A model generated the notes under the pieces. The model ran no database searches. It saw only the letters and a list, made by a program, of their open reading frames with translations, and had not been told where the DNA came from. The translations under genes were made by a program, and so were the position numbers. From a virus: a stretch of DNA of 13,892 bases. Where the stretch lies: UHGV virus genome UHGV-0110421. One strand, given 5' to 3'. This document shows, in pieces, positions 824 through 13,842 of the stretch (positions are counted from its first letter, which is position 1; every line of letters starts with the position of its first letter).

Positions 824-2141
824 TCTCGATATCCTCGTCGGTAATGGATGCCCCGATGCCGGTGACGTCAGAGTTTTCGCGCAGGTCGGTCATCGCCGCC
901 TTACGCGTCATCAATCCGTCGCCCAGCGCGGTACTGATCGCGTTGGTGGTGTTTACGGCCACCGTTGATCGGTCAACGTCTGACATTTGCCATAGCGGGT
1001 TAAACTCAAACGTGAAATCGTCCGGCAGCGGCTTTCCGAGTTCCGAGCGGTGCATAATGTCCAGTATCCGGCGCATCGGCAGCCGTAAGCGGCGCTCCTG
1101 CAATGAGCTCACCCGGTCGTAATAGTTGGCGAGGTCTGCATCACCAGTAGAGAAGCCTTTCGGGGATTGACCGAACAGGCGTATCAGCGGGATACCAACG
1201 GCACCGCTGATCTGCTCAGCAAACTGCGAAAGAATGTCATCCAGACCACTAAAGCTGTACTGGTGGGTTTCGAACTTATCCCGCGAGTCCATGAGCGTCA
1301 TACCTTCATTGCTCTGGAACTGGCGGATCAGGTCGATGTTCTTCAGCAACGCTTCGAACGCCGGGCCTCCAAGCGCGATAAGCTCGCGCAACTTCTCCAC
1401 GCTATAGGTACGCAGATGCGCTTTATAGACCAGCTGCGCCGCGCCGACAGTAGCGCTATCGAACGCAGTAAGCCGATCCCAGATACGCTCTACAACCGAC
1501 ATTCCCCATTCGTTTTCGGTCATCTTCTGCTGGAATGGCAGCGTGACGCCATCAAAGCGGATCAGGCGGCTGTGATGGATGCGCCAGGCCGGAATGCCCG
1601 TTGCGGTGGTCACCACGTCGTAAAACTCAGGCTTGCCGAGGTCCGGCCCCATCTCTTTAATGCGGCGTGTCAGCACCGGGTTAATCATCCAGCGGTCGAG
1701 CGGGAGAATGCCCTTAAACTTGCCCTCGCCAATGGTTTCGAGTCGCAGCGGGGTCATTGGTGCTTGCCCCTCGATCATGATGAAGCCGACCGCGCCGCCG
1801 TAGAGGCGCGACCATTTCAGCACGTCGTTCAGCGCATCCCAGATCTGCAACTCATCCAGTTGCGCTTCGAGGGTGCCACGGTCTTTGGCGTCAATCTCCG
1901 AAGTGATGCGAATGCCCTTTCGGGTCATATCGTCCGGGATAGCGTCGACCGCTTCACCGATAACCCACGAACCGCGATATGACCATTCCACCAGCATGCG
2001 GTTGCGGCTGGTGAAGTTCGCCCGGTAGGTCGATGCTGAATGCTGGTTAGGCGTCTGCATCCCAACGCGGGCGACGAAGTTCTCGTAGCCGTCAGCGGTG
2101 GCCTGTGCCGTTCGCTGAGAGGATTGCTTGTTTCGTGCCAT
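672..2141 (-). CDS. phage portal protein
   Basis: 489-aa ORF whose ATG overlaps the TerL stop (ATGA at 2141). Acidic Gly/Pro-rich C-terminal tail and position between TerL and head morphogenesis gene. Confidence 0.7.
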   Translation of the reverse strand: MARNKQSSQRTAQATADGYENFVARVGMQTPNQHSASTYRANFTSRNRMLVEWSYRGSWVIGEAVDAIPDDMTRKGIRITSEIDAKDRGTLEAQLDELQIWDALNDVLKWSRLYGGAVGFIMIEGQAPMTPLRLETIGEGKFKGILPLDRWMINPVLTRRIKEMGPDLGKPEFYDVVTTATGIPAWRIHHSRLIRFDGVTLPFQQKMTENEWGMSVVERIWDRLTAFDSATVGAAQLVYKAHLRTYSVEKLRELIALGGPAFEALLKNIDLIRQFQSNEGMTLMDSRDKFETHQYSFSGLDDILSQFAEQISGAVGIPLIRLFGQSPKGFSTGDADLANYYDRVSSLQERRLRLPMRRILDIMHRSELGKPLPDDFTFEFNPLWQMSDVDRSTVAVNTTNAISTALGDGLMTRKAAMTDLRENSDVTGIGASITDEDIENAEDEAPPGIGELGDKPPEPPGGDPISNEPTADSAGGRGYRKWSLRWFKR

Positions 2142-3763
2142 CAGGCCTGTCTCCCTAGCAGCTCCCAGATGTTCAGGGCTGAATTCATTGGCGCGTAGCT
2201 GATCATCACCGAGTCGGCGAGGTTCGGCGACTTGGTGCCATCAGGCTGTTTATCAACAACGATTTTCCCCACGCCATTAATGGAGTAGGTCGGCTGCGAC
2301 AGCTCAATGATGAGTTTGTCTTTGCTCGCCATGGCGCTGCTGATTGAGATGATTTCGTCCGGGTTGTAGGCCATGCCCTCAACCACGGCGCGATAGGTGT
2401 TCTGGAAAAGCTTGCGTAGCCACCACCAGCTCTGGGCCTTGGCGTTGGCGAAGAAGTCCTTGTTCAGGCGTGCGGCCTGTCCGTTGTCCCCGCGCACCGC
2501 TTCATCGTCCGGATCAAATACCGCGCCGCTACCACGAAACGGTGTGGCGAGTATTGACGGTCGGCGCGCTGCGTAACGCAGTTCGTTGATGGCGCGCGCA
2601 TCGCCGCGAACGCCAGCACCCAGGCCGTCCTCGTCGAAGCGAAACTCTTCGAGGTTGTCCTGTTCGCAAAAGCCGAAGACCTTCTCAACAGACTGGTAAA
2701 TGTCGCTGCCAACGCCGGACCATTCACGCACGTTCTCCAGAAGGAAGCCGTGACGGGTCGAAAAGGCATTTTTGTCCCGGCCTTCGTCGGCGACGTCCAT
2801 CGCGCCCAGTCGCTTGCCCGTTGGCTGAATACCAAGTTTGATATGCGCGTCGACGGCAGCCTGTACCCAGTCGGACGGGATCAGGACGCCTTCCGCAGAT
2901 GCGCTGTAGTTCAGGTCAAGTTCCTGCGCCACCACCACCGGATTGTCGATTTTCTCGCATTCCCTGCGATACCACTCTTCATCCTTGCGCGGGTCATTTC
3001 GCCAGTGGAATGTGAAAACCGGTATCTTCCCGCCGTGACGCTTCTGCGCGAACGGGTTCGCCATGCCGTTAACCGAACTCAGGTCGATACGGCAGCGGGT
3101 GGTTTGCGACAGCGCTGCGTCGATCAGCAGAGGACGCTGGAGGAATGCAGCCTCATCTACCAGGTAGAGCGTGGTACGGTCACCACGTCCGATATTGTCG
3201 CCAGCTTCGCCTTTGATGACCGCGCCCGTATCGGGAAACTCAACGCGCATGTACGGCGCGTGCTTCTTCTCGTCCCACGAACCGCGAAACTCGACGGGCA
3301 GCGTTTCCACGAATTTGCGCGCCTTCCAGAACAGCGCCTTCGGGTCACCGGTGCTATCGACGTATTCCTCTTTACGGGAGCCGAAGCCGATAACCATCTC
3401 TTTGTTGAAGAGGCAGAGCGAACAGGCCAGCCCGATCGCCGTCCAGCTGAGCCCCATTTCGCGGCTCTTTTCGGTGATGCCGTTCTCCAGCCGTTCGCGC
3501 CGCTCAATGATCCAGTGAATCCACTCTTCCTGTTTCGGGAACAGCAGAAAAGGGATTGTGACCGGCAGGCCATAATCGATGTTACGCGGGTCAGTAGTCA
3601 TACCCCAGTCGATGATGAACTGTGCCGGGTTGGTGCGGTAAAACTGCTTTAGTGCTGGCAGCATTTCAGGGTTCTGGCGAATGCGCTGTAAGCGCTCCAT
3701 CCGCCATTCAAAAACCATCTGGTAATCAGGGTTTCTGAAATCGAATTCAAACGGAAGAGGCAT
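2141..3763 (-). CDS. terL: terminase large subunit
   Basis: Large ORF with terminase-like ATPase/nuclease architecture, between the small-subunit gene and portal. Start placed at ATG 3763 (MPLPFEFDF...); the tracked start at 3820 is a TTG inside the AT-rich insert and is judged unlikely. Confidence 0.8.
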
Positions 3764-3834
3764 AAACAATTCCAGGCATTGAGTTTTTGCGTAACAAAGT
3801 TGATATTGTTTATGTACCAATTACAGGAGGTTTT

Positions 3835-7149: not shown

Positions 7150-7839
7150 TTAGTTCATTTCTGCAATACCTTGCTGCGAATAAGCAGCTTTTTGTTGTGA
7201 ACGAGATCGCGAAACATGGAGCAGGGATTGTGAGTCAAGGCTCTTATACAGACGCGTCATAGCGTCATAATGCTCCACGTAGTTCTGTGACCAGTTTGTT
7301 TTGTTAACGCCCACCAGCGCAGCGAGATCACCATACTGATACACATCGTGCCCGGACAATTCGGCTTTCACATCCTGCGCCGCCAGCCAAATCAATTGAC
7401 GCAACCGTTCGATGGTCTTTTTCGCGAGCCGCTTTCCGGCAAGCGATTGCTGAAACTCACTCCACGTCCATTGGGTTATCGTGACCTGATGCTCCCAAAC
7501 GATGTTCCCGCTGTAACTCCACAGCAACCAAGCTTTCTGATGTTCATCGAGTGACAACAGCGCGCGGCGCCAGGACGCTGTCACAAATTCAATCGGCTGC
7601 ACCAGCGGGATATGAGAACCTTTTGCGTGCGACTGTTTACCGGGGATCGGCGGATTATCCAGCGTAATCATTTTCCCGGTAACCTCATCCAGCACCCGGA
7701 GCTTTTTTCGCTTGAACGTGTTCGTGTCGAACTGAGCATTCTCCAGCCAGGCCATTAACTGCCCTTTGGTTGCACCACTAAAATCTGCAGTGGCCGCCAT
7801 CAGCTGCTGTCGAACGTATTCCAAATATTGCTGTGTCAC
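7150..7839 (-). CDS. Q: late-gene antitermination protein Q
   Basis: 229-aa ORF immediately downstream of rusA and upstream of terminators plus lysis cassette. GTG start at 7839 overlaps the rusA stop (GTGA) with GGAGGG upstream. Family call is by synteny and recollection. Confidence 0.6.
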
Positions 7840-8198
7840 ACGCCCTCCAATTCAGTGATTGTTAATTCGAGTTTCCCGCCTTTAACGACCGGCATTCTCT
7901 TCACGCTGTAGTAATCAACCTGCTGGTCGTCGAGCCAGAAACCAGATTTCGTCAGCGCGTCGAAAACGGCTTTTTGCAGGTTATCCAGATCCCGGCGGCG
8001 ACGGTCCTGCATATGGCATTCGATGCGAATTTTCACGGGTGTTGCCAGGCCGATATCCAGCATCGCGTCTTTGATAATTCTGGCGACACTGTCACGGAAC
8101 GCCTGCCCTTCTGCGCTGATGTGCGTGCGCCCGCGATTATGGCGGTAGTAGCGGTTATTGCTCGGCGGCCAGGGCAATGTGATGTTGTAAGTATTCAC
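7836..8198 (-). CDS. rusA: Holliday junction resolvase RusA
   Basis: Near-identity by recollection to E. coli RusA ([25 protein letters not shown]...[34 protein letters not shown]). Start taken as GTG at 8198 overlapping the ybcO stop, giving ~120 aa; the tracked ATG at 8261 would add 21 aa. Confidence 0.8.
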
Positions 8199-8485
8199 GC
8201 CTTGATTACCCCCTCTTTCAGCCAGATAACCTGCGTTCTCGCCATACCTTCCAGCGCGCATTCTTTAGCATACTCAGCATCGACAAAATGTGTACGGCGG
8301 TCGATCTCGTCGTGACAGGCAGAGCATGCAATGGTGGCAATCAGATCAGGCGGTTTGATTCCGGTGCCACATAACCCGGCCAGGCGAATGTGCGCCAGTA
8401 CAGACGTTTCCGGGTTACCGTTGCAGACGCCGGGAATTCGAACCTGACAATCACGACCACGAGCCTCTTTGCGTAAATTTGCCAT
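8195..8485 (-). CDS. ybcO: YbcO-like putative nuclease (DUF1364)
   Basis: 96-aa product ([35 protein letters not shown]...) closely matches DLP12 YbcO as I remember it. Start at the internal ATG 8485, just after the upstream stop. Confidence 0.75.
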
Positions 8486-8487
8486 GC

Positions 8488-8697
8488 TCACCCCCACGCC
8501 TTGCTTTGCCATACCCGGCTCGGGCGAGGCGCGTTATCGCCTTCCGGCAATTGCGCGCTGACGGTCCAGGTGATGTTGTCGCGATTCAGGCTGCGCTCTG
8601 TCTTTACACCGCGCGCCCGGTATTTCTCCACCAGCTCGTCGGCCTGTTCGGTGGTGCATTCGTGATGGTGGAACCAGGAAAATTTCATCGCCATCAC
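8488..8697 (-). CDS. hypothetical small nin-region protein (69 aa)
   Basis: ATG overlaps the stop of the upstream gene (ATGA), in the same operon. No motif recognised. Confidence 0.4.
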   Translation of the reverse strand: MMAMKFSWFHHHECTTEQADELVEKYRARGVKTERSLNRDNITWTVSAQLPEGDNAPRPSRVWQSKAWG

Positions 8698-9293
8698 CCC
8701 GCAAAGCTCATCAGCTGGGCGGCGGCGTTTTCTGCCTCTTCACAACTGCGAAATGATCGGGAGAGTATCCATCGCCACAGAACATCGAGCGCGGCTTTGT
8801 ACAGCTGCTGGAACTCGGTTTCGTCCATGTTGGCAAAGGCAATGCTGCGGGGGGGTTTGCGAAGGGTGCCGTCGGGAAGCTGTATGGCGTCGTAGTGGCC
8901 AGACTCGATGATCACCCATGCACGATATGCGTCATAGGATTTGCAGATGCTGATACTACCGGCGCGCTTATCGGCGATGCGGTCCAGATATTGCTCAGCA
9001 GCATCCAGGAGTGCTGCTTCACTTCCCGCGAATGAGGCAAGGAACTTGGCATAGCCGGTTACCAGCTTGCGTTCGTTGGAGGAGATTGCCCCGCCGGTGG
9101 GTTCCCAGTATTCGAAACCGAGATTGAGTAACGCGAAGAAACGACGGTGAAAGGCCGGGTTGCGTACCTGCCGGAACTCAGCCACCAGTACGGAGCCGAG
9201 TTTGATTTTTGATTGCAGTAAATCACTGGTCTCCGGCGTAGCGGGGATCAGGATTCCTGAGGAATGCTTGATGAGTTGTAGTTCGTGCGCCAT
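8694..9293 (-). CDS. conserved phage nin-region protein (possibly DUF1367 / YbcN-like)
   Basis: 199-aa ORF, ATG at 9293 with GGAGAG upstream, in the position occupied by ybcN-type genes upstream of ybcO-rusA. Family assignment uncertain. Confidence 0.45.
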   Translation of the reverse strand: MAHELQLIKHSSGILIPATPETSDLLQSKIKLGSVLVAEFRQVRNPAFHRRFFALLNLGFEYWEPTGGAISSNERKLVTGYAKFLASFAGSEAALLDAAEQYLDRIADKRAGSISICKSYDAYRAWVIIESGHYDAIQLPDGTLRKPPRSIAFANMDETEFQQLYKAALDVLWRWILSRSFRSCEEAENAAAQLMSFAG

Positions 9294-9327
9294 GGTTTCT
9301 CTCCGTGGCGCAGTAGGTTACGGTTGT

Positions 9328-9576
9328 TCAGACCGTTGATTTCATATTATCAGAAGGTGGGGTTACCCGGTAGCCGAGACGGTGAATAAACTGCATAAAA
9401 CCATTAGGAGTAAAGACCTCTTCATCATCCAGCAAAGGCCGCATAGAAACCATGCCATTGACGCGATAAATTAGATGCCTGCCCGATGAAGGAAAGCTAA
9501 ACACCACGCAGCCGTCAGACCTTCTTACAATGTCATACCAGTTGTCTTCTGACGTTTGCAAAGCTGAATCACTCAC
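9328..9576 (-). CDS. hypothetical protein (82 aa)
   Basis: GTG start at 9576 with AAGGGAG upstream, located between the dinI terminator and the nin genes. No motif recognised. Confidence 0.35.
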   Translation of the reverse strand: MSDSALQTSEDNWYDIVRRSDGCVVFSFPSSGRHLIYRVNGMVSMRPLLDDEEVFTPNGFMQFIHRLGYRVTPPSDNMKSTV

Positions 9577-9663
9577 ATTTATGTTCTCCCTTCGAGCGAC
9601 TAACAGACGCGATTAAAGATTGTCGGCAGCAGCATCAGAGGGTTACGCAAATTGCGGTATTCT

Positions 9664-9690
9664 GAAAAATGCGCGCCAGCCTTAAGCGCA
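9664..9690 (-). terminator. putative intrinsic terminator downstream of dinI
   Basis: GC-rich 5-bp stem (UGCGC / GCGCA) with an 11-nt loop, followed by UUUUUC on the minus-strand RNA, just 3' of the dinI stop. Confidence 0.35.
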
Positions 9691-9693
9691 ATT

Positions 9694-9927
9694 CTAATAA
9701 AACCAGTCGTCAGCGCTTTCCCAGGTATCCTGGAGGATTGATTCAATTTTCTTTTTATCGTCCTTGTCACCACCAAAAACACTTAACCCATCGGCCCCGG
9801 CACGGCGGATTGTGAGCCTGCAATTGTCATAGTGATCATTCAGGCGCTTAAGCAGTTCTTTCTCCAGTGCTGGTACTGCGCCTTTAGGAAGTTCTTTCAT
9901 GCGATCAATGGTTAATTCAACTTTCAT
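9694..9927 (-). CDS. dinI: DinI-like DNA-damage-inducible protein
   Basis: MKVELTIDRMKELPKGAVPALEKELLKRL...SILQDTWESADDWFY matches the DinI family pattern (C-terminal ETWESADDWF motif). Start at the second ATG (9927), which has a GGGG Shine-Dalgarno-like motif. Confidence 0.8.
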   Translation of the reverse strand: MKVELTIDRMKELPKGAVPALEKELLKRLNDHYDNCRLTIRRAGADGLSVFGGDKDDKKKIESILQDTWESADDWFY

Positions 9928-9945
9928 AATGGCCCCCATTGCATT

Positions 9946-9965
9946 TACTGTGTTTTTATACAGTA
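9946..9965. promoter_or_regulatory. LexA (SOS) box overlapping the dinI promoter
   Basis: TACTGTGTTTTTATACAGTA fits the CTGT-N8-ACAG SOS-box consensus with TA flanks. It overlaps a TATACT -10-like hexamer on the minus strand ~20 nt upstream of dinI. Confidence 0.7.
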
Positions 9966-10027
9966 TACCTATGCGCGGAAATGATCAACGCTTTAAGAGC
10001 ACAAATTGTTAATTTTCTGTCAGTAGT

Positions 10028-10056
10028 AAAAAAAAAAACCCCGCCGTAGCGGGTTG
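10028..10056 (-). terminator. intrinsic terminator
   Basis: Minus-strand RNA CCCGC-UACG-GCGGG followed by a run of 11 U (plus strand shows an A11 run then the stem). Separates the moron cassette from the dinI promoter. Confidence 0.6.
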
Positions 10057-10087
10057 AATTAGCGATGTTTTATTACGCCGCTATTTG

Positions 10088-10137
10088 TTTCTGCTGACAA
10101 AGCTCCTGTAGGTTAGCCCTAACCAGCGCCTCAGCGA
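10088..10137. repeat. direct repeat copy A (~50 bp, duplicate of methyltransferase 3' end)
   Basis: TTTCTGCTGACAAAGCTCC... aligns to 10676-10725 with about 6 mismatches over ~47 bp. Both copies would encode ...AEALVRANL(Q/P)ELCQQK(Q/E)IAA-stop on the minus strand. Confidence 0.6.
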
Positions 10138-10279
10138 GCTGATGATTGGACAGCATTAACGCAATGGGTAATAGAAACCACAGAATGCACGAAATGGCGG
10201 TGGTATTCGCCATCTGTGACAGGTTGAATATTGCTCGAATTGTATTGTTTGCACTTTAACGTTTCTGTTGTAGTGCCGG

Positions 10280-10316
10280 ATGCATGCCACCGTATGTTCA
10301 GGACGATGGCATGCAT
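10280..10316. repeat. perfect 10-bp inverted repeat (ATGCATGCCA ... TGGCATGCAT) with 17-bp spacer
   Basis: Seen directly in the sequence, immediately 3' of the 78-aa moron ORF on the minus strand. No adjacent U-run. Confidence 0.6.
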
Positions 10317-10324
10317 ATTATGGA

Positions 10325-10561
10325 TTACGATTTATCCATTCCCAGGGGATTAGGGTGAATTCCACTTACATGCCAGAACGCATGCTCTCTATTCAACTGA
10401 TTTCCCTTTGGTATCAGGAAGCCATACGTCCCAGATTTAAAAGTGGCATGAGCGCAGATTAGACTTTCTCCTTCAAAGCTATACTCAGTCCCTTCAGGGA
10501 TTAGAGAGTCAGTCTTGATCAGGTGAACAGTTCCGTTGATAGGGATCATGTAATGGTGCAT
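10325..10561 (-). CDS. uncharacterised moron protein (78 aa, His-rich, soluble)
   Basis: ATG at 10561 with GAGGAG upstream and its own extended -10 promoter. AT-rich segment. No family recognised. Confidence 0.5.
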   Translation of the reverse strand: MHHYMIPINGTVHLIKTDSLIPEGTEYSFEGESLICAHATFKSGTYGFLIPKGNQLNREHAFWHVSGIHPNPLGMDKS

Positions 10562-12581: not shown

Positions 12582-13121
12582 TCATATAGCCCCCAGCATA
12601 ATCTGCACCATTTCCATCAACGGACCGGTTAACCCAGGGTCAACGCGATACATCTCCACGATCCCCTCGCTCAACTCTTTCAGCTTCTGATGACGTGGCG
12701 CATCCATTGCGACAGCAATCTTCGCTTCGCTGGTTTCCTTCTCCAGCCTTGCCAGACGAGCCATTACGTTGTCTTCTGGTAGCAGACGATTGCGGTATTC
12801 AATCGGCAGGACAGCGAGGATTGCCGGCGTCAGCTGGCGGACGTTCTCGCGGTACCGTTCGCTGTTGAAATGGTTATCCAGGAAGCGGAACAGCTTCTGC
12901 CGGGCACGGCTGTGATCTGCCGGAAAGTCGATACCTTCGCCACCTATCCGGTGCCACTCTTCAACGATCAGGGCCGTTACAACGTCCTGCCCGGCTACTG
13001 CTGACCAGGCGCGAACAGCATCACGGAGGGCACCACAACTGACGCCCGGTTTTGGTTGAGCGCGATTTATCAGCGCTGCTGAAATGAACCCGTTACTCTG
13101 TTGATACGTAAGTGATTGCAT
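12582..13121 (-). CDS. YdaT-like protein (CII functional analogue of Rac/CP-933-type prophages)
   Basis: 179-aa ORF directly downstream of the Cro-like gene, ATG 13121 with AAGGA upstream. Motifs LTPAILAVLPIEYRNRLLP and C-terminal ...MLGAI resemble YdaT as I remember it. Confidence 0.5.
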   Translation of the reverse strand: MQSLTYQQSNGFISAALINRAQPKPGVSCGALRDAVRAWSAVAGQDVVTALIVEEWHRIGGEGIDFPADHSRARQKLFRFLDNHFNSERYRENVRQLTPAILAVLPIEYRNRLLPEDNVMARLARLEKETSEAKIAVAMDAPRHQKLKELSEGIVEMYRVDPGLTGPLMEMVQIMLGAI

Positions 13122-13132
13122 AGTTACATTCC

Positions 13133-13351
13133 TTACTTTGGTAAACCGTCACTTGGGTTTGGATAGAGATCAGGGCGCAGCTCGTGTGGAGTTACGCCGG
13201 TAGCCGCGTAGATTTGAAGGACCCGATCAGCAGGCACCACGCCCTGGTACCGGTTTTTCCAGCGGCTGACCGACATCGGCTTGATGCCCAGCATGGTTGC
13301 GAGATTTGTTGCAGTGCCAGCGGACTTAATGGCTTTCGTTAACCCGTTCAT
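13133..13351 (-). CDS. Cro-like HTH regulator (YdaS-like)
   Basis: 72-aa product from ATG 13351 (GGAG upstream) with a helix-turn-helix region (ATNLATMLGIKPMSVSRWKN). Divergent from the repressor gene. The tracked 97-aa version starts at an unlikely TTG. Confidence 0.6.
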   Translation of the reverse strand: MNGLTKAIKSAGTATNLATMLGIKPMSVSRWKNRYQGVVPADRVLQIYAATGVTPHELRPDLYPNPSDGLPK

Positions 13352-13455
13352 CGTTGTCTCCGATTTGAATACAATCAAATTAAGCCTGAGACTTAATTTA
13401 TTGTCAAGCCTGAGGCGAATTTTCAAGTTTAAGAAAAAGGCTTATTCTTCTAACC
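13352..13455. promoter_or_regulatory. immunity-region intergenic: divergent promoters and operator-like repeats
   Basis: An 8-bp inverted repeat AAATTAAG-N7-CTTAATTT (~13377-13399), direct repeats of AAGCCTGAG (~13382 and ~13406), and a TTGACA on the minus strand (~13401-13406) oriented toward the Cro-like gene. Confidence 0.45.
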
Positions 13456-13842
13456 ATGAAAGAGAAAACCGTACTTAATCCGATACTTGTCGAACGCCTT
13501 TCAGAGCTGAACGGGCGCGGTATGACCAAATCCGATATGGCCAGGGTTGCTGGGGTAACCCCGCAGTCTGTGAACGGCTGGTTTAAAAAAGGCGTGATCA
13601 GCAAGAAATCAGCTCTCGCTGTCGCTGACGCAGCTGGCGTGTCTGTGCCTTGGTTACTCGGTGAGGATGTCGGCGAGAAGGACGGACTTAAGCCGGACGA
13701 ACAGCGCCTGCTTGAGCTCTACCGCCAGCTGCCAGAAGAAGAGCAACAGAACATGCTCCGCATCTTTTCGATACGTCTTAAGGAACTGGATGAGCTGTAT
13801 GAGAAGTACATGAAGGGGCGGATTCGCTCGCAGGGGGACTGA
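13456..13842 (+). CDS. CI/RacR-like prophage repressor (XRE-type HTH, no S24 peptidase domain)
   Basis: N-terminal HTH (MTKSDMARVAGVTPQSVNGWFKKGV) and a helical C-terminal half. Divergent from Cro-like/YdaT-like genes, as in racR-ydaS-ydaT. ATG has no obvious Shine-Dalgarno sequence, so the transcript may be leaderless. Confidence 0.6.
   Translation: MKEKTVLNPILVERLSELNGRGMTKSDMARVAGVTPQSVNGWFKKGVISKKSALAVADAAGVSVPWLLGEDVGEKDGLKPDEQRLLELYRQLPEEEQQNMLRIFSIRLKELDELYEKYMKGRIRSQGD

Follow-up and report, generated by a model that had tools for sequence, protein, structure and literature searches.

The closest described counterparts of the locus analysed here are the dinI operons of the Gifsy prophages, among them the dinI–gfoA–irsA operon of Gifsy-1, which was described together with its repressor GfoR (Lemire, Figueroa-Bossi & Bossi 2011, PMC3121763). 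A terminator-like palindrome lies ahead of the LexA box in all Gifsy prophages, and non-polar deletions of dinI leave Gifsy induction unaffected. In Gifsy-2, replacement of the LexA-box region 5' of dinI by PBAD rendered prophage induction dependent on arabinose, an effect that proceeds via the downstream gene gftA (PMC3121763). The boxes of the Gifsy dinI genes are located 19 bp from the ATG, have a heterology index of 3.9–5.3, and are associated with a 4.6- to 23-fold induction by nalidixic acid (PMC8072944). In Gifsy-1, a gfoA::mCherry replacement was SOS inducible (PMC12626290), and H-NS has been reported to restrict gfoA expression (PMC6563222). Searches seeded with GfoA also uncovered Rem of Qin (PMC10448788).

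We analysed a stretch of 13,892 nucleotides of a viral genome (UHGV-0110421), hereafter the window, for which a first-pass annotation had proposed an SOS-inducible dinI gene set apart by terminators on both sides. Sequence elements, conservation, homologies, and the co-occurrence of repressor and antirepressor types were computed in the present study. The region very probably serves a lambdoid prophage of E. coli as its module for sensing SOS and triggering induction, organized as a Gifsy-type dinI–antirepressor–irsA operon with an inducer of the GfoA family. Given that it contains the parts of the operon, a GfoR-like repressor, and a LexA box whose position ahead of the antirepressor gene is conserved, we regard the locus as an E. 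coli copy of the operon of Lemire et al. 2011. Positions 9300–10250 are 99% identical to the isolated phage mEp237, and the prophage family to which mEp237 belongs is present in 53 of the 5,426 complete genomes of E. coli, with further relatives in Citrobacter, Enterobacter, Klebsiella, Raoultella, Leclercia, and other genera. A literature search on phage mEp237 yielded nothing relevant. The features of the locus, in the order in which the operon is read, are as follows.

10028–10053, minus strand: intrinsic terminator, CCCGC-TACG-GCGGG followed by G and 11 T
9983–9988, minus strand: putative –35-like hexamer TTGATC, read directly from the sequence
9960–9967, minus strand: putative –10-like region, with both candidate hexamers overlapping the LexA box
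9946–9965, no strand assigned: LexA (SOS) box, TACTGTATAAAAACACAGTA in the dinI sense, 18 nt 5' of the dinI ATG
9694–9927, minus strand: dinI homologue, 77 aa plus stop, with the Shine-Dalgarno sequence GGGGG at 9933–9937
9665–9690 (stem-loop 9672–9690), minus strand: weak hairpin and tail, TGCGC-TTAAGGCTG-GCGCG, then CATTTTT
9577–9693, minus strand: dinI–antirepressor spacer, 117 nt, conserved in sequence
9328–9576, minus strand: candidate antirepressor of the GfoA family, 82 aa, with a GTG start behind GGGAG (9586–9590)
8694–9293, minus strand: irsA homologue (DUF1367), 199 aa, third gene of the Gifsy-type operon
13456–13842, plus strand: prophage repressor, 128 aa, HTH_3 only, presumed target of the antirepressor

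LexA box, promoter, and upstream terminator

The motif CTGT-N8-ACAG occurs only once in the window, within the box at 9946–9965. The 8-base core alone occurs by chance in 31 of 200 shuffled sequences; the full 20-mer has three mismatches to TACTGTATATATATACAGTA, a result equalled by none of the 200. The box is identical to the LexA consensus at 17 of 20 positions, and both outer hexamers (the TACTGT half-sites) are perfect. Scoring was performed with our own position weight matrix rather than with the published heterology index (Lewis matrix). This matrix was made from a set of 27 LexA boxes of E. coli, and its absolute scores are approximate. The site scores 24–26 bits and ranks third among the training sites, compared with 8.6 for the second-best site in the window and 18.5 for the top score over 200 shuffles. 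All elements of the operon locus lie on the minus strand, and the box as quoted in the first-pass annotation is the plus-strand sequence.

A consensus promoter scan of positions 9200–10400 on both strands called no promoter, and we therefore propose one only from conserved hexamers. Two –10 candidates can be paired with TTGATC: TATACT (9962–9967), at a suboptimal spacing of 15 nt, and TACTGT (9960–9965), which lies inside the box at a spacing of 17 nt. A TTGAT or TTGAA sequence is kept at an equal distance from the box in Gifsy and Citrobacter loci. By analogy with the Gifsy experiments, LexA would be expected to bind at 9946–9965.

Among related loci, an equivalent box is located 16–20 nt before dinI in all 21 of those that contain dinI. 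Of 28 related loci, which come from different species, 27 have a LexA box 5' of the antirepressor gene, and in six related loci that lack dinI the box is situated directly upstream of the antirepressor gene.

The upstream terminator folds at –11.2 kcal/mol (z –3.45), a stability not attained by any of 200 shuffled sequences. These values support a role for the element at 10028–10053 in ending the upstream early-right genes and shielding the SOS promoter. Several components of the first-pass annotation were thus upheld: the near-consensus LexA box proved both real and strong in the shuffle controls and in the matrix scoring that had been suggested as a check (24–26 bits, with a clear distance to the next-best window site), the strong intrinsic terminator upstream was confirmed, and the stated overlap of the box with a –10-like hexamer applies to both candidates of the putative promoter, with TATACT overlapping the box and TACTGT being contained in it. 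The annotation had also placed a DinI homologue behind this operator, which is supported by the Pfam and structural-template alignments described below.

Genes of the operon and the presumed repressor target

The likely start of dinI is the ATG at 9927, behind GGGGG and 18 nt past the box; the ATG at 9939, which opens the mechanically called reading frame, was judged not to be the likely one. The product matches the full length of the Pfam profile DinI (PF06183, E 3.8e-26) and aligns end to end with E. coli DinI (1GHH, residues 1–76, E 9.5e-18), and it carries the conserved ILQxTWESADDWF acidic COOH-terminal helix. RefSeq names it 'DinI family protein'. Its score of 91 bits against NCBIfam PRK10597 is under the equivalog cut-off of 111 bits, and we therefore consider it a paralogue rather than the orthologue of the chromosomal protein. 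Among the related loci, a premature stop codon interrupts dinI in L005, and the L030 copy is a pseudogene.

The 82-aa gene begins 117 nt downstream of dinI and lies between dinI and irsA, as in Gifsy, under the annotation 'hypothetical protein'. The protein corresponds to WP_001568777.1 in strain AR_0118, which bears no RefSeq name; it belongs to PHROG families 340 and 1813, neither of which has a function assigned, and to no Pfam or NCBIfam family. We found 37 homologues in Enterobacteriaceae, and all of the antirepressor homologues that we examined start with GTG. Assignment to GfoA is based on primer-derived termini and on the Salmonella family member P0003, which is 90% identical to the 82-aa protein. 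P0003 begins with MSNSALQK, the NH2-terminus of GfoA encoded by primer le175, and the COOH-terminus of GfoA, RRLGYRVTPPSDI (primers le163/pp867), matches HRLGYRVTPPSDN in the 82-aa protein. BLASTP revealed no similarity between the 82-aa protein and LT2 GftA, and hhalign of its profile with GftA gave a collinear, distant alignment (E 7e-4, probability 26%, 52 columns); membership of the GftA family is therefore not claimed. An AlphaFold2 model of moderate confidence (pLDDT 69) contains four strands and a helix. A Foldseek search of this model against the PDB gave no match with an E value below 2, and the sequence profile of the protein matched no PDB entry. On the basis of the sequence comparisons, the gene product is most likely a LexA-controlled antirepressor that switches the prophage on after DNA damage.

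The irsA homologue matches Pfam DUF1367 (E 5e-91) and is 83% identical to STM2620 of Gifsy-1, and its NH2-terminus MAHELQLIK agrees with the irsA deletion primer pp644. Past irsA, no terminator-like site was found before the end of Q. For the 128-aa repressor, Pfam detected only HTH_3 and no S24 self-cleavage domain, and NCBIfam gave a weak match to DicA. The termini of the protein (MKEKT... and ...EKYMKGRIRSQGD) match those deduced for GfoR from primers (MKEKTHQ and EKYMKGRIRTRED). Its gene is flanked by YdaS/Cro-like and YdaT/CII-like genes. Within the phage collection, nine phages carry homologues of the repressor, and these nine are also the ones with homologues of the antirepressor. A switch based on a self-cleaving repressor of the lambda CI type was also considered; the 128-aa protein has no COOH-terminal S24 peptidase domain.

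By analogy with the Gifsy experiments, we infer that the LexA-controlled promoter drives a transcript shared by dinI and the antirepressor gene and that the antirepressor binds the repressor. In a lysogen, host LexA on the box at 9946–9965, over the promoter –10, would hold the operon off. DNA damage would activate RecA and thereby trigger self-cleavage of LexA, after which the promoter would fire. One transcript would then cover dinI (9927–9694), the 82-aa gene (9576–9328), and probably the irsA homologue (9293–8694). The antirepressor would bind the non-cleavable 128-aa HTH repressor (13456–13842) and strip it from its operators, and the resulting derepression of the early promoters would induce the prophage. 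DinI would act as a co-expressed modulator of the RecA filament that is dispensable for the switch.

The dinI–antirepressor junction and alternative readings

The hairpin downstream of dinI lies 4 nt past the stop codon and passes a lenient terminator scan. Its fold (–9.0 kcal/mol, z –0.63) was matched in stability by 38 of 200 shuffled sequences, and its U-run is five residues long and follows CA. It was found in 4 of 22 related dinI loci and was absent from the other 18. Gifsy-2 of LT2 carries the same hairpin with one loop base different, and, given that PBAD placed 5' of dinI induces that prophage through gftA, transcription is known to pass the hairpin there. The hairpin with its five U residues could terminate some fraction of transcripts, and it is at most a partial attenuator.

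The spacer, in which this hairpin lies, is conserved in sequence. The 3' end of dinI together with the spacer is 83% identical to Gifsy-1 LT2, whereas the body of dinI reaches 61% and the antirepressor gene 51%, and conserved blocks of the spacer persist across genera. No LexA box or promoter-like site was found in the spacer of the window or in those of 21 related dinI-containing loci. This conservation, the GTG start common to the antirepressor homologues, and the reported limitation of gfoA expression by H-NS (PMC6563222) speak for a reading in which the operon is LexA controlled and the hairpin and conserved spacer serve as a partial attenuator or cis element, keeping the ratio of antirepressor to DinI low so that induction would occur only under strong or sustained SOS. 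Such a reading refines the operon explanation rather than replacing it. We hold it to be possible, if on the unlikely side, since the hairpin itself is not conserved, folding of the spacer shows no excess of structure (z 0.13 in the window, 1.16 in Gifsy; alifold –4.8 kcal/mol), the window matched no Rfam family when scanned in full, the C/G skew does not stand out, and the Shine-Dalgarno sequence is no less accessible in native leaders than in 100 dinucleotide shuffles (unpaired probability of 0.83 versus 0.24 for the window, with mixed results for other loci).

Three specific elements of the spacer were tried and rejected. An anti-Shine-Dalgarno helix (YCCCU/GGGGG), suggested by single-sequence folds, failed the shuffle control. 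A leader peptide, MLLPTIFNRVC, loses its frame in L005 and lacks an ATG in the Enterobacter loci. Composition resembling that of Rho-utilisation sites was not apparent, with a C/G ratio of 1.25 compared with a background 90th percentile of 1.46.

More speculatively, the conserved island at 9577–9741, made up of the 117-nt spacer and the final 48 nt of dinI, might be an undescribed cis-regulatory element that fixes the ratio of DinI to antirepressor. The invariant GTG start would act with it, as would the weak hairpin in this sub-lineage. We consider such an element doubtful. Its possible forms are a partial terminator, an RNA-processing site, and a site bound by a host factor, for example H-NS; if real, the island would set the SOS threshold for lytic commitment of Gifsy-type prophages.

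Another reading accepts the operon and questions its target: the 82-aa protein would not induce its own prophage and might affect only other prophages, in trans; alternatively, the element might be cryptic, with an operon remnant that merely supplies DinI to the host. Gifsy antirepressors are described as acting on non-cognate repressors, with some pairs mismatched (PMC3121763). The window nevertheless contains intact replication, Q, lysis, terminase, and portal genes, its near identity to mEp237 is to an isolated phage, and the repressor and antirepressor, each of the GfoR/GfoA type, are found together across phages, all of which renders this reading improbable. Least credible of all, and to our minds very improbable, is a monocistronic SOS gene dinI between two terminators, with the 82-aa gene expressed separately (from the early-right operon or its own promoter) and DinI as the sole link to RecA and SOS: the hairpin with CATTTTT just past the stop codon satisfies the lenient terminator rule and 117 nt is long for an operon junction, but the hairpin is only as stable as shuffled sequences, is missing from most dinI loci, and is read through in Gifsy-2, the dinI and antirepressor genes overlap in one locus (L021), the spacer offers neither promoter-like site nor LexA box, and dinI-less relatives have the box directly before the antirepressor gene.

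Taken together, a GfoA-type gene with a GfoR-like repressor, a promoterless spacer, the dinI-less loci, the weakness of the hairpin, and read-through in Gifsy-2 indicate that the link to SOS most likely runs through the antirepressor of a Gifsy-type operon. The first-pass annotation must be revised in this respect. Its candidate downstream terminator is no more stable than shuffled sequence and is retained in few dinI loci, and the notion of dinI as an independent unit insulated on both sides is not supported by the spacer, the hairpin, and the position of the box in relatives without dinI. The locus does connect the prophage to the host SOS status, as had been claimed; DinI itself, with the antirepressor gene downstream and relatives that dispense with dinI, does not appear to be the connection.

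The biology of the locus adds nothing beyond that of Lemire et al. 2011, and the practical value of the analysis lies in annotation: a 'hypothetical protein' beside dinI most likely couples a prophage family that includes mEp237 to SOS. An annotation that stops at an SOS-inducible dinI overlooks both the inducer and its non-cleavable repressor target. Since antirepression of this kind is reversible and can also affect other prophages in trans, recognition of the antirepressor matters for prediction of antibiotic-triggered prophage induction in polylysogens.

Comparison with described systems

The Gifsy-1 operon of S. Typhimurium ATCC14028 (PMC3121763) shares with the window the order of palindrome, LexA box approximately 19 bp before dinI, antirepressor gene with a non-AUG start (GTG in the window), and irsA. 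This order is also the one described for Gifsy-2 and Gifsy-3. The two boxes are identical at 19 of 20 positions when one is read on the opposite strand, with the central 8 bp being inverted. GfoA and the window antirepressor have matching termini, MS(N/D)SALQ... and ...RLGYRVTPPSD, as do GfoR and the window repressor, MKEKT... and ...EKYMKGRIR..., and both repressors are short and devoid of a cleavage domain. The window antirepressor differs in that its 82 aa include a longer COOH-terminal tail (...SDNMKSTV) than that of GfoA (...SDI). The window also differs in its E. coli host and mEp237-like backbone.

The dinI–gftA operon of Gifsy-2 and of Gifsy-1 (LT2) has the same architecture as the window and the hairpin in common with it. 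Identity to the window is 83% for the 3' end of dinI with the spacer, 83% for the irsA homologue, and 66% for DinI. LT2 GftA (73 aa) is a distant relative of the window antirepressor, if it is related at all.

Tum of coliphage 186, the split tum of Fels-2/PSP3, and AntC of N15 are likewise LexA-repressed antirepressors directed against a non-cleavable repressor, although no sequence similarity was detected between the window antirepressor and the antirepressor parts of this group. Antirepressor and DinI are linked in Tum as well, given that Tum carries a DinI-like COOH-terminal half; PHROG 189 matches DinI at positions 71–148 of its 151-position profile. In the Tum group the parts are fused or are arranged as antirepressor followed by DinI, whereas in the window they are separate genes with dinI preceding the antirepressor gene.

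The Rem-DicA system of Qin (Ragunathan et al. 2023, PMC10448788) likewise sets a small protein against a short HTH repressor, one that belongs to the DicA/RacR/GfoR group. Qin differs in being cryptic and in that no LexA box has been reported for rem. Finally, the chromosomal dinI of E. coli (1GHH) encodes a protein of the same fold family with the acidic COOH-terminal helix and has a LexA box approximately 19 bp before its ATG. The chromosomal gene encodes 81 aa and stands alone, whereas the prophage gene encodes 77 aa and heads an operon.

LexA box, dinI and flanking terminators

By gene content, the window is a lambdoid prophage. Its segment 9300-10250 shows 99.2% identity to coliphage mEp237. 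Among 5,426 complete E. coli genomes, 53 match it altogether, 52 of them at one chromosomal site with at least 95% identity. Strain AR_0118 has the same gene order as the window, and its 82-aa ORF behind dinI is labelled "hypothetical protein".

Features of the window, in the direction of transcription
13456-13842, divergent from the minus-strand genes: repressor of 128 aa, HTH_3 only (Pfam)
Minus strand, before the terminator: YdaS/Cro-like, then YdaT/CII-like, O, P and small ORFs
Stop near 10070, minus strand: end of a 46-codon ORF upstream of the terminator
10053-10028, minus strand: canonical intrinsic terminator CCCGC-TACG-GCGGG, then G and eleven T
9988-9983, minus strand: TTGATC, after the terminator and before the LexA box
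9967-9962, minus strand: TATACT, overlapping the LexA box 20-mer
9965-9946, minus strand (transcription direction): LexA box 20-mer, TACTGTATAAAAACACAGTA
9937-9933, minus strand: Shine-Dalgarno GGGGG, preceding the dinI ATG
9927 (ATG) to 9696-9694 (TAG), minus strand: dinI, 77-codon ORF
9690-9672, minus strand: hairpin, then CATTTTT, marginal as a terminator
9576-9328, minus strand: 82-codon ORF with GTG start
9293-8694, minus strand: DUF1367 gene, followed by a small ORF, YbcO and RusA
7839-7150, minus strand: Q, followed by holin, lysozyme, metallopeptidase, DUF2280, a 559-codon ORF and portal
2141-3820, minus strand: the 559-codon ORF, no Pfam match, possibly the terminase large subunit from its position only

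The first-pass annotation had proposed an independent SOS-inducible dinI under a near-consensus LexA box, with a terminator on either side. The CTGT-N8-ACAG core occurs once in the window and arises alone in 31 of 200 shuffles, whereas the full 20-mer differs from the palindromic consensus at no more than three positions, a closeness seen in none of 200 shuffles. Scoring with a LexA position weight matrix had been suggested as a check; with a symmetric matrix of 27 E. coli LexA boxes, whose absolute values are approximate, the box scored 24-26 bits (third in rank among the training sites), compared with 8.6 bits for the runner-up in the window and 18.5 bits for the best of 200 shuffles. The -10-like hexamer under the box was likewise found. 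A mechanical ORF list starts dinI at the ATG at 9939; the Shine-Dalgarno sequence precedes ATG 9927, which also serves as the start in homologues from the Salmonella prophages Gifsy and in the annotations of mEp237 and RefSeq. Pfam identifies the product as a DinI homologue (E 3.8e-26); it aligns over its full length with E. coli DinI (1GHH, E 9.5e-18), including the ...TWESADDWF helix. Within the box, the central 8 bp are asymmetric and run in opposite orientations relative to dinI in the window (9946-9965, sense strand ATAAAAAC) and in Gifsy (L002 coordinates 2854-2873, sense strand GTTTATAT); the outer TACTGT/ACAGTA arms are the same.

For the upstream terminator, the folding energy of -11.2 kcal/mol (z -3.45) was equalled by 0 of 200 shuffles, and upstream insulation holds. 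The downstream hairpin (-9.0 kcal/mol, z -0.63) was equalled by 38 of 200 shuffles. From the shuffle, matrix, fold and homology results, the initial observation is therefore confirmed, the downstream terminator excepted. When the terminator rule of the scan tool was re-implemented and applied to dinI loci, a hairpin with a T-run followed dinI in 4 of 22 (the window, Gifsy LT2 and two Citrobacter). Gifsy-2 of LT2 carries the same hairpin, with one loop base different, between dinI and the antirepressor gene gftA. Replacement of the Gifsy-2 segment from the terminator to the dinI AUG by araC-PBAD rendered induction arabinose-dependent, an activity that mapped to gftA (PMC3121763); transcription from upstream of dinI therefore passes the hairpin in Gifsy-2. 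From the hairpin to the Q stop codon (7150-9672, minus strand), no terminator-like site was found, so SOS-driven transcripts might reach ybcO, rusA and Q. Two strong terminators with stems of 11 and 8 bp lie downstream of Q (7082-7027, minus strand) and probably represent the tR' region of the late operon.

The ORF behind dinI and its probable partners

The gene that matters is most likely the unannotated ORF behind dinI. Gifsy repressors are inactivated by the small antirepressors GfoA, GfhA and GftA, and the antirepressor ORF has a non-canonical GUG start codon (PMC3121763). We deduced the ends of GfoA from the published primers rather than from a full sequence: MSNSALQK at the NH2-terminus (le175 and pp866) and ...RRLGYRVTPPSDI at the COOH-terminus (le163 and pp867) (PMC3121763). 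The window protein reads VSDSALQT...HRLGYRVTPPSDNMKSTV, and P0003, a Salmonella family member 90% identical to it, reads MSNSALQK...RRLGYRVTPPSDNMKPTA. On the basis of this identity and the matching ends, we placed the 82-aa ORF in the GfoA family as a candidate antirepressor. Its 37 homologues in Enterobacteriaceae are all unnamed and lack a Pfam domain. BLASTP against LT2 GftA gave no match, and hhalign gave E 7e-4 at 26% probability over 52 collinear columns; any relation to GftA thus appears remote at best. The two proteins belong to separate PHROGs, each labelled "unknown function". RefSeq and mEp237 list this GfoA-family protein as "hypothetical", and no function is given for its PHROGs, 340 and 1813.

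A GTG start (9574-9576 in the window) preceded by a G-rich Shine-Dalgarno sequence was seen in all GfoA-family or GftA genes inspected (L003-L030; script for 17 loci, eye for 3), suggesting that antirepressor translation is under selection to initiate weakly. In the window, this GTG is overlapped by an out-of-frame start-stop pair, ATG-TGA (9573-9578, aaATGTGAgt). This pair is present in the related loci L024, L025 and L029 and probably incidental, given that it is missing from L003 and L005-L007.

The DUF1367 protein (8694-9293) is 83% identical to Gifsy-1 STM2620, and its NH2-terminus, MAHELQLIK, is that encoded by the deletion primer for irsA, the third operon gene. PHROGs labels this homologue "NinB/Orf recombination mediator", which Pfam (DUF1367 only) neither supports nor contradicts. 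The 128-aa repressor begins with MKEKT and ends with EKYMKGRIRSQGD, the primer-deduced termini of the Gifsy repressor GfoR being MKEKTHQ and EKYMKGRIRTRED; Pfam detected no S24 domain in it. In a phage collection, homologues of the repressor and of the 82-aa protein occurred in the same nine phages (mEp237, SEN34, SW-37, PHB10, two Klebsiella OXA48 phages, Chris1, SPN3UB and FSL SP-016). Given that the repressors of the window and mEp237 are 74% identical and the dinI-antirepressor segments 99%, the two elements may differ in immunity and share an antirepressor. The immunity region (12582-13842) is of the RacR/DicA-YdaS-YdaT type, and the genes that Pfam calls "toxin YdaS" and "toxin YdaT" are Cro-like and CII-like by position.

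Related loci and the conserved spacer

We scored 28 loci from the genomes of 28 different species, each encoding a relative of the 82-aa protein, for dinI, irsA and LexA boxes. In 20 of the 28, the box precedes dinI, then come the antirepressor and usually irsA, always with 16-20 nt between box and dinI ATG; a box between dinI and antirepressor was found in none of the 28. Six loci (L022-L025, L028 and L029; two Silvania, two Leclercia MAGs, Pseudescherichia and L. adecarboxylata) lack dinI and keep box, antirepressor and irsA, with the box ~150 nt directly upstream of the antirepressor (about 2300-2500). In Mangrovibacter (L030), a dinI pseudogene (2170-2370) accompanies a retained box and antirepressor, and no irsA match was found; in L005, a premature stop (2346-2348) removes the acidic helix of DinI, with box, antirepressor and irsA kept. 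Neither box nor dinI was found in L018, a short MAG contig. The dinI-less loci, with their box upstream of the antirepressor, indicate that LexA control tracks the antirepressor and that dinI is optional. Together with the scarcity of the hairpin and the box-free spacer, they speak against dinI as an independent insulated unit. The dinI-less 5' UTRs of L024, L025, L028 and L029 have their own hairpin, TTCTCCCCGCCGGGAGAG, immediately before the Shine-Dalgarno sequence.

Identity to Gifsy-1 LT2 is 83% over a segment made up of the 117-nt spacer and the 48 nt that end dinI (window 9577-9741, minus strand; L002 2490-2648; L032 690-848), compared with 61% for the rest of dinI; antirepressor DNA could not be aligned (51% when a global alignment was forced). 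Enterobacter, Siccibacter and Raoultella retain short blocks of the spacer (TATCGC, TTGCGT, YCCCT, GCGTC, GTCGCT and GGGGG, in several genera). Five explanations of this conservation failed: stable folding of the RNA, a masked Shine-Dalgarno sequence, an encoded leader peptide, rut-like composition, and a promoter or LexA box inside the spacer, which is a modest lead. In two Atlantibacter loci the spacer measures just 42 nt, and L021 has a 17-nt overlap of dinI and antirepressor.

Proposed mechanism and comparison with Gifsy

What was observed here is the set of sequence elements and how far they are conserved, the homologies, and the joint occurrence of repressor and antirepressor; homology with Gifsy suggests how they would act. 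LexA would sit on the box over the -10 region and block the promoter; the upstream terminator stops read-in from the early-right operon. On DNA damage, LexA would be cleaved and dinI, antirepressor and irsA co-transcribed; the antirepressor would then bind the GfoR-like repressor and free it from its operators, and the early promoters would open.

The dinI unit had been taken to give the prophage a direct link to host RecA/SOS status. E. coli DinI is known to modulate RecA filaments (PMC3121763, its references 27-29), and the window DinI presumably does the same. Given that non-polar dinI or irsA deletions left Gifsy induction unchanged (PMC3121763) and that some members of the family have lost dinI, DinI does not appear to be the link; control through the LexA box, as read from sequence, stands. 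The first-pass interpretation was thus half right, in SOS control and upstream insulation and not in an independent dinI.

The Gifsy system was described by Lemire, Figueroa-Bossi and Bossi (PLoS Genet 2011; PMC3121763), who found that putative prophages in Escherichia, Citrobacter, Klebsiella and Enterobacter retain the dinI-irsA region. Nalidixic acid induces the three Gifsy dinI genes, each with a single box 19 bp ahead of the ATG, by 4.6- to 23-fold (PMC8072944), and SOS also induces a gfoA::mCherry replacement in Gifsy-1 (PMC12626290). The value of the present locus lies in annotation: it agrees feature by feature with the Gifsy operon (PMC3121763) and is an E. coli member of the system already described in 2011.
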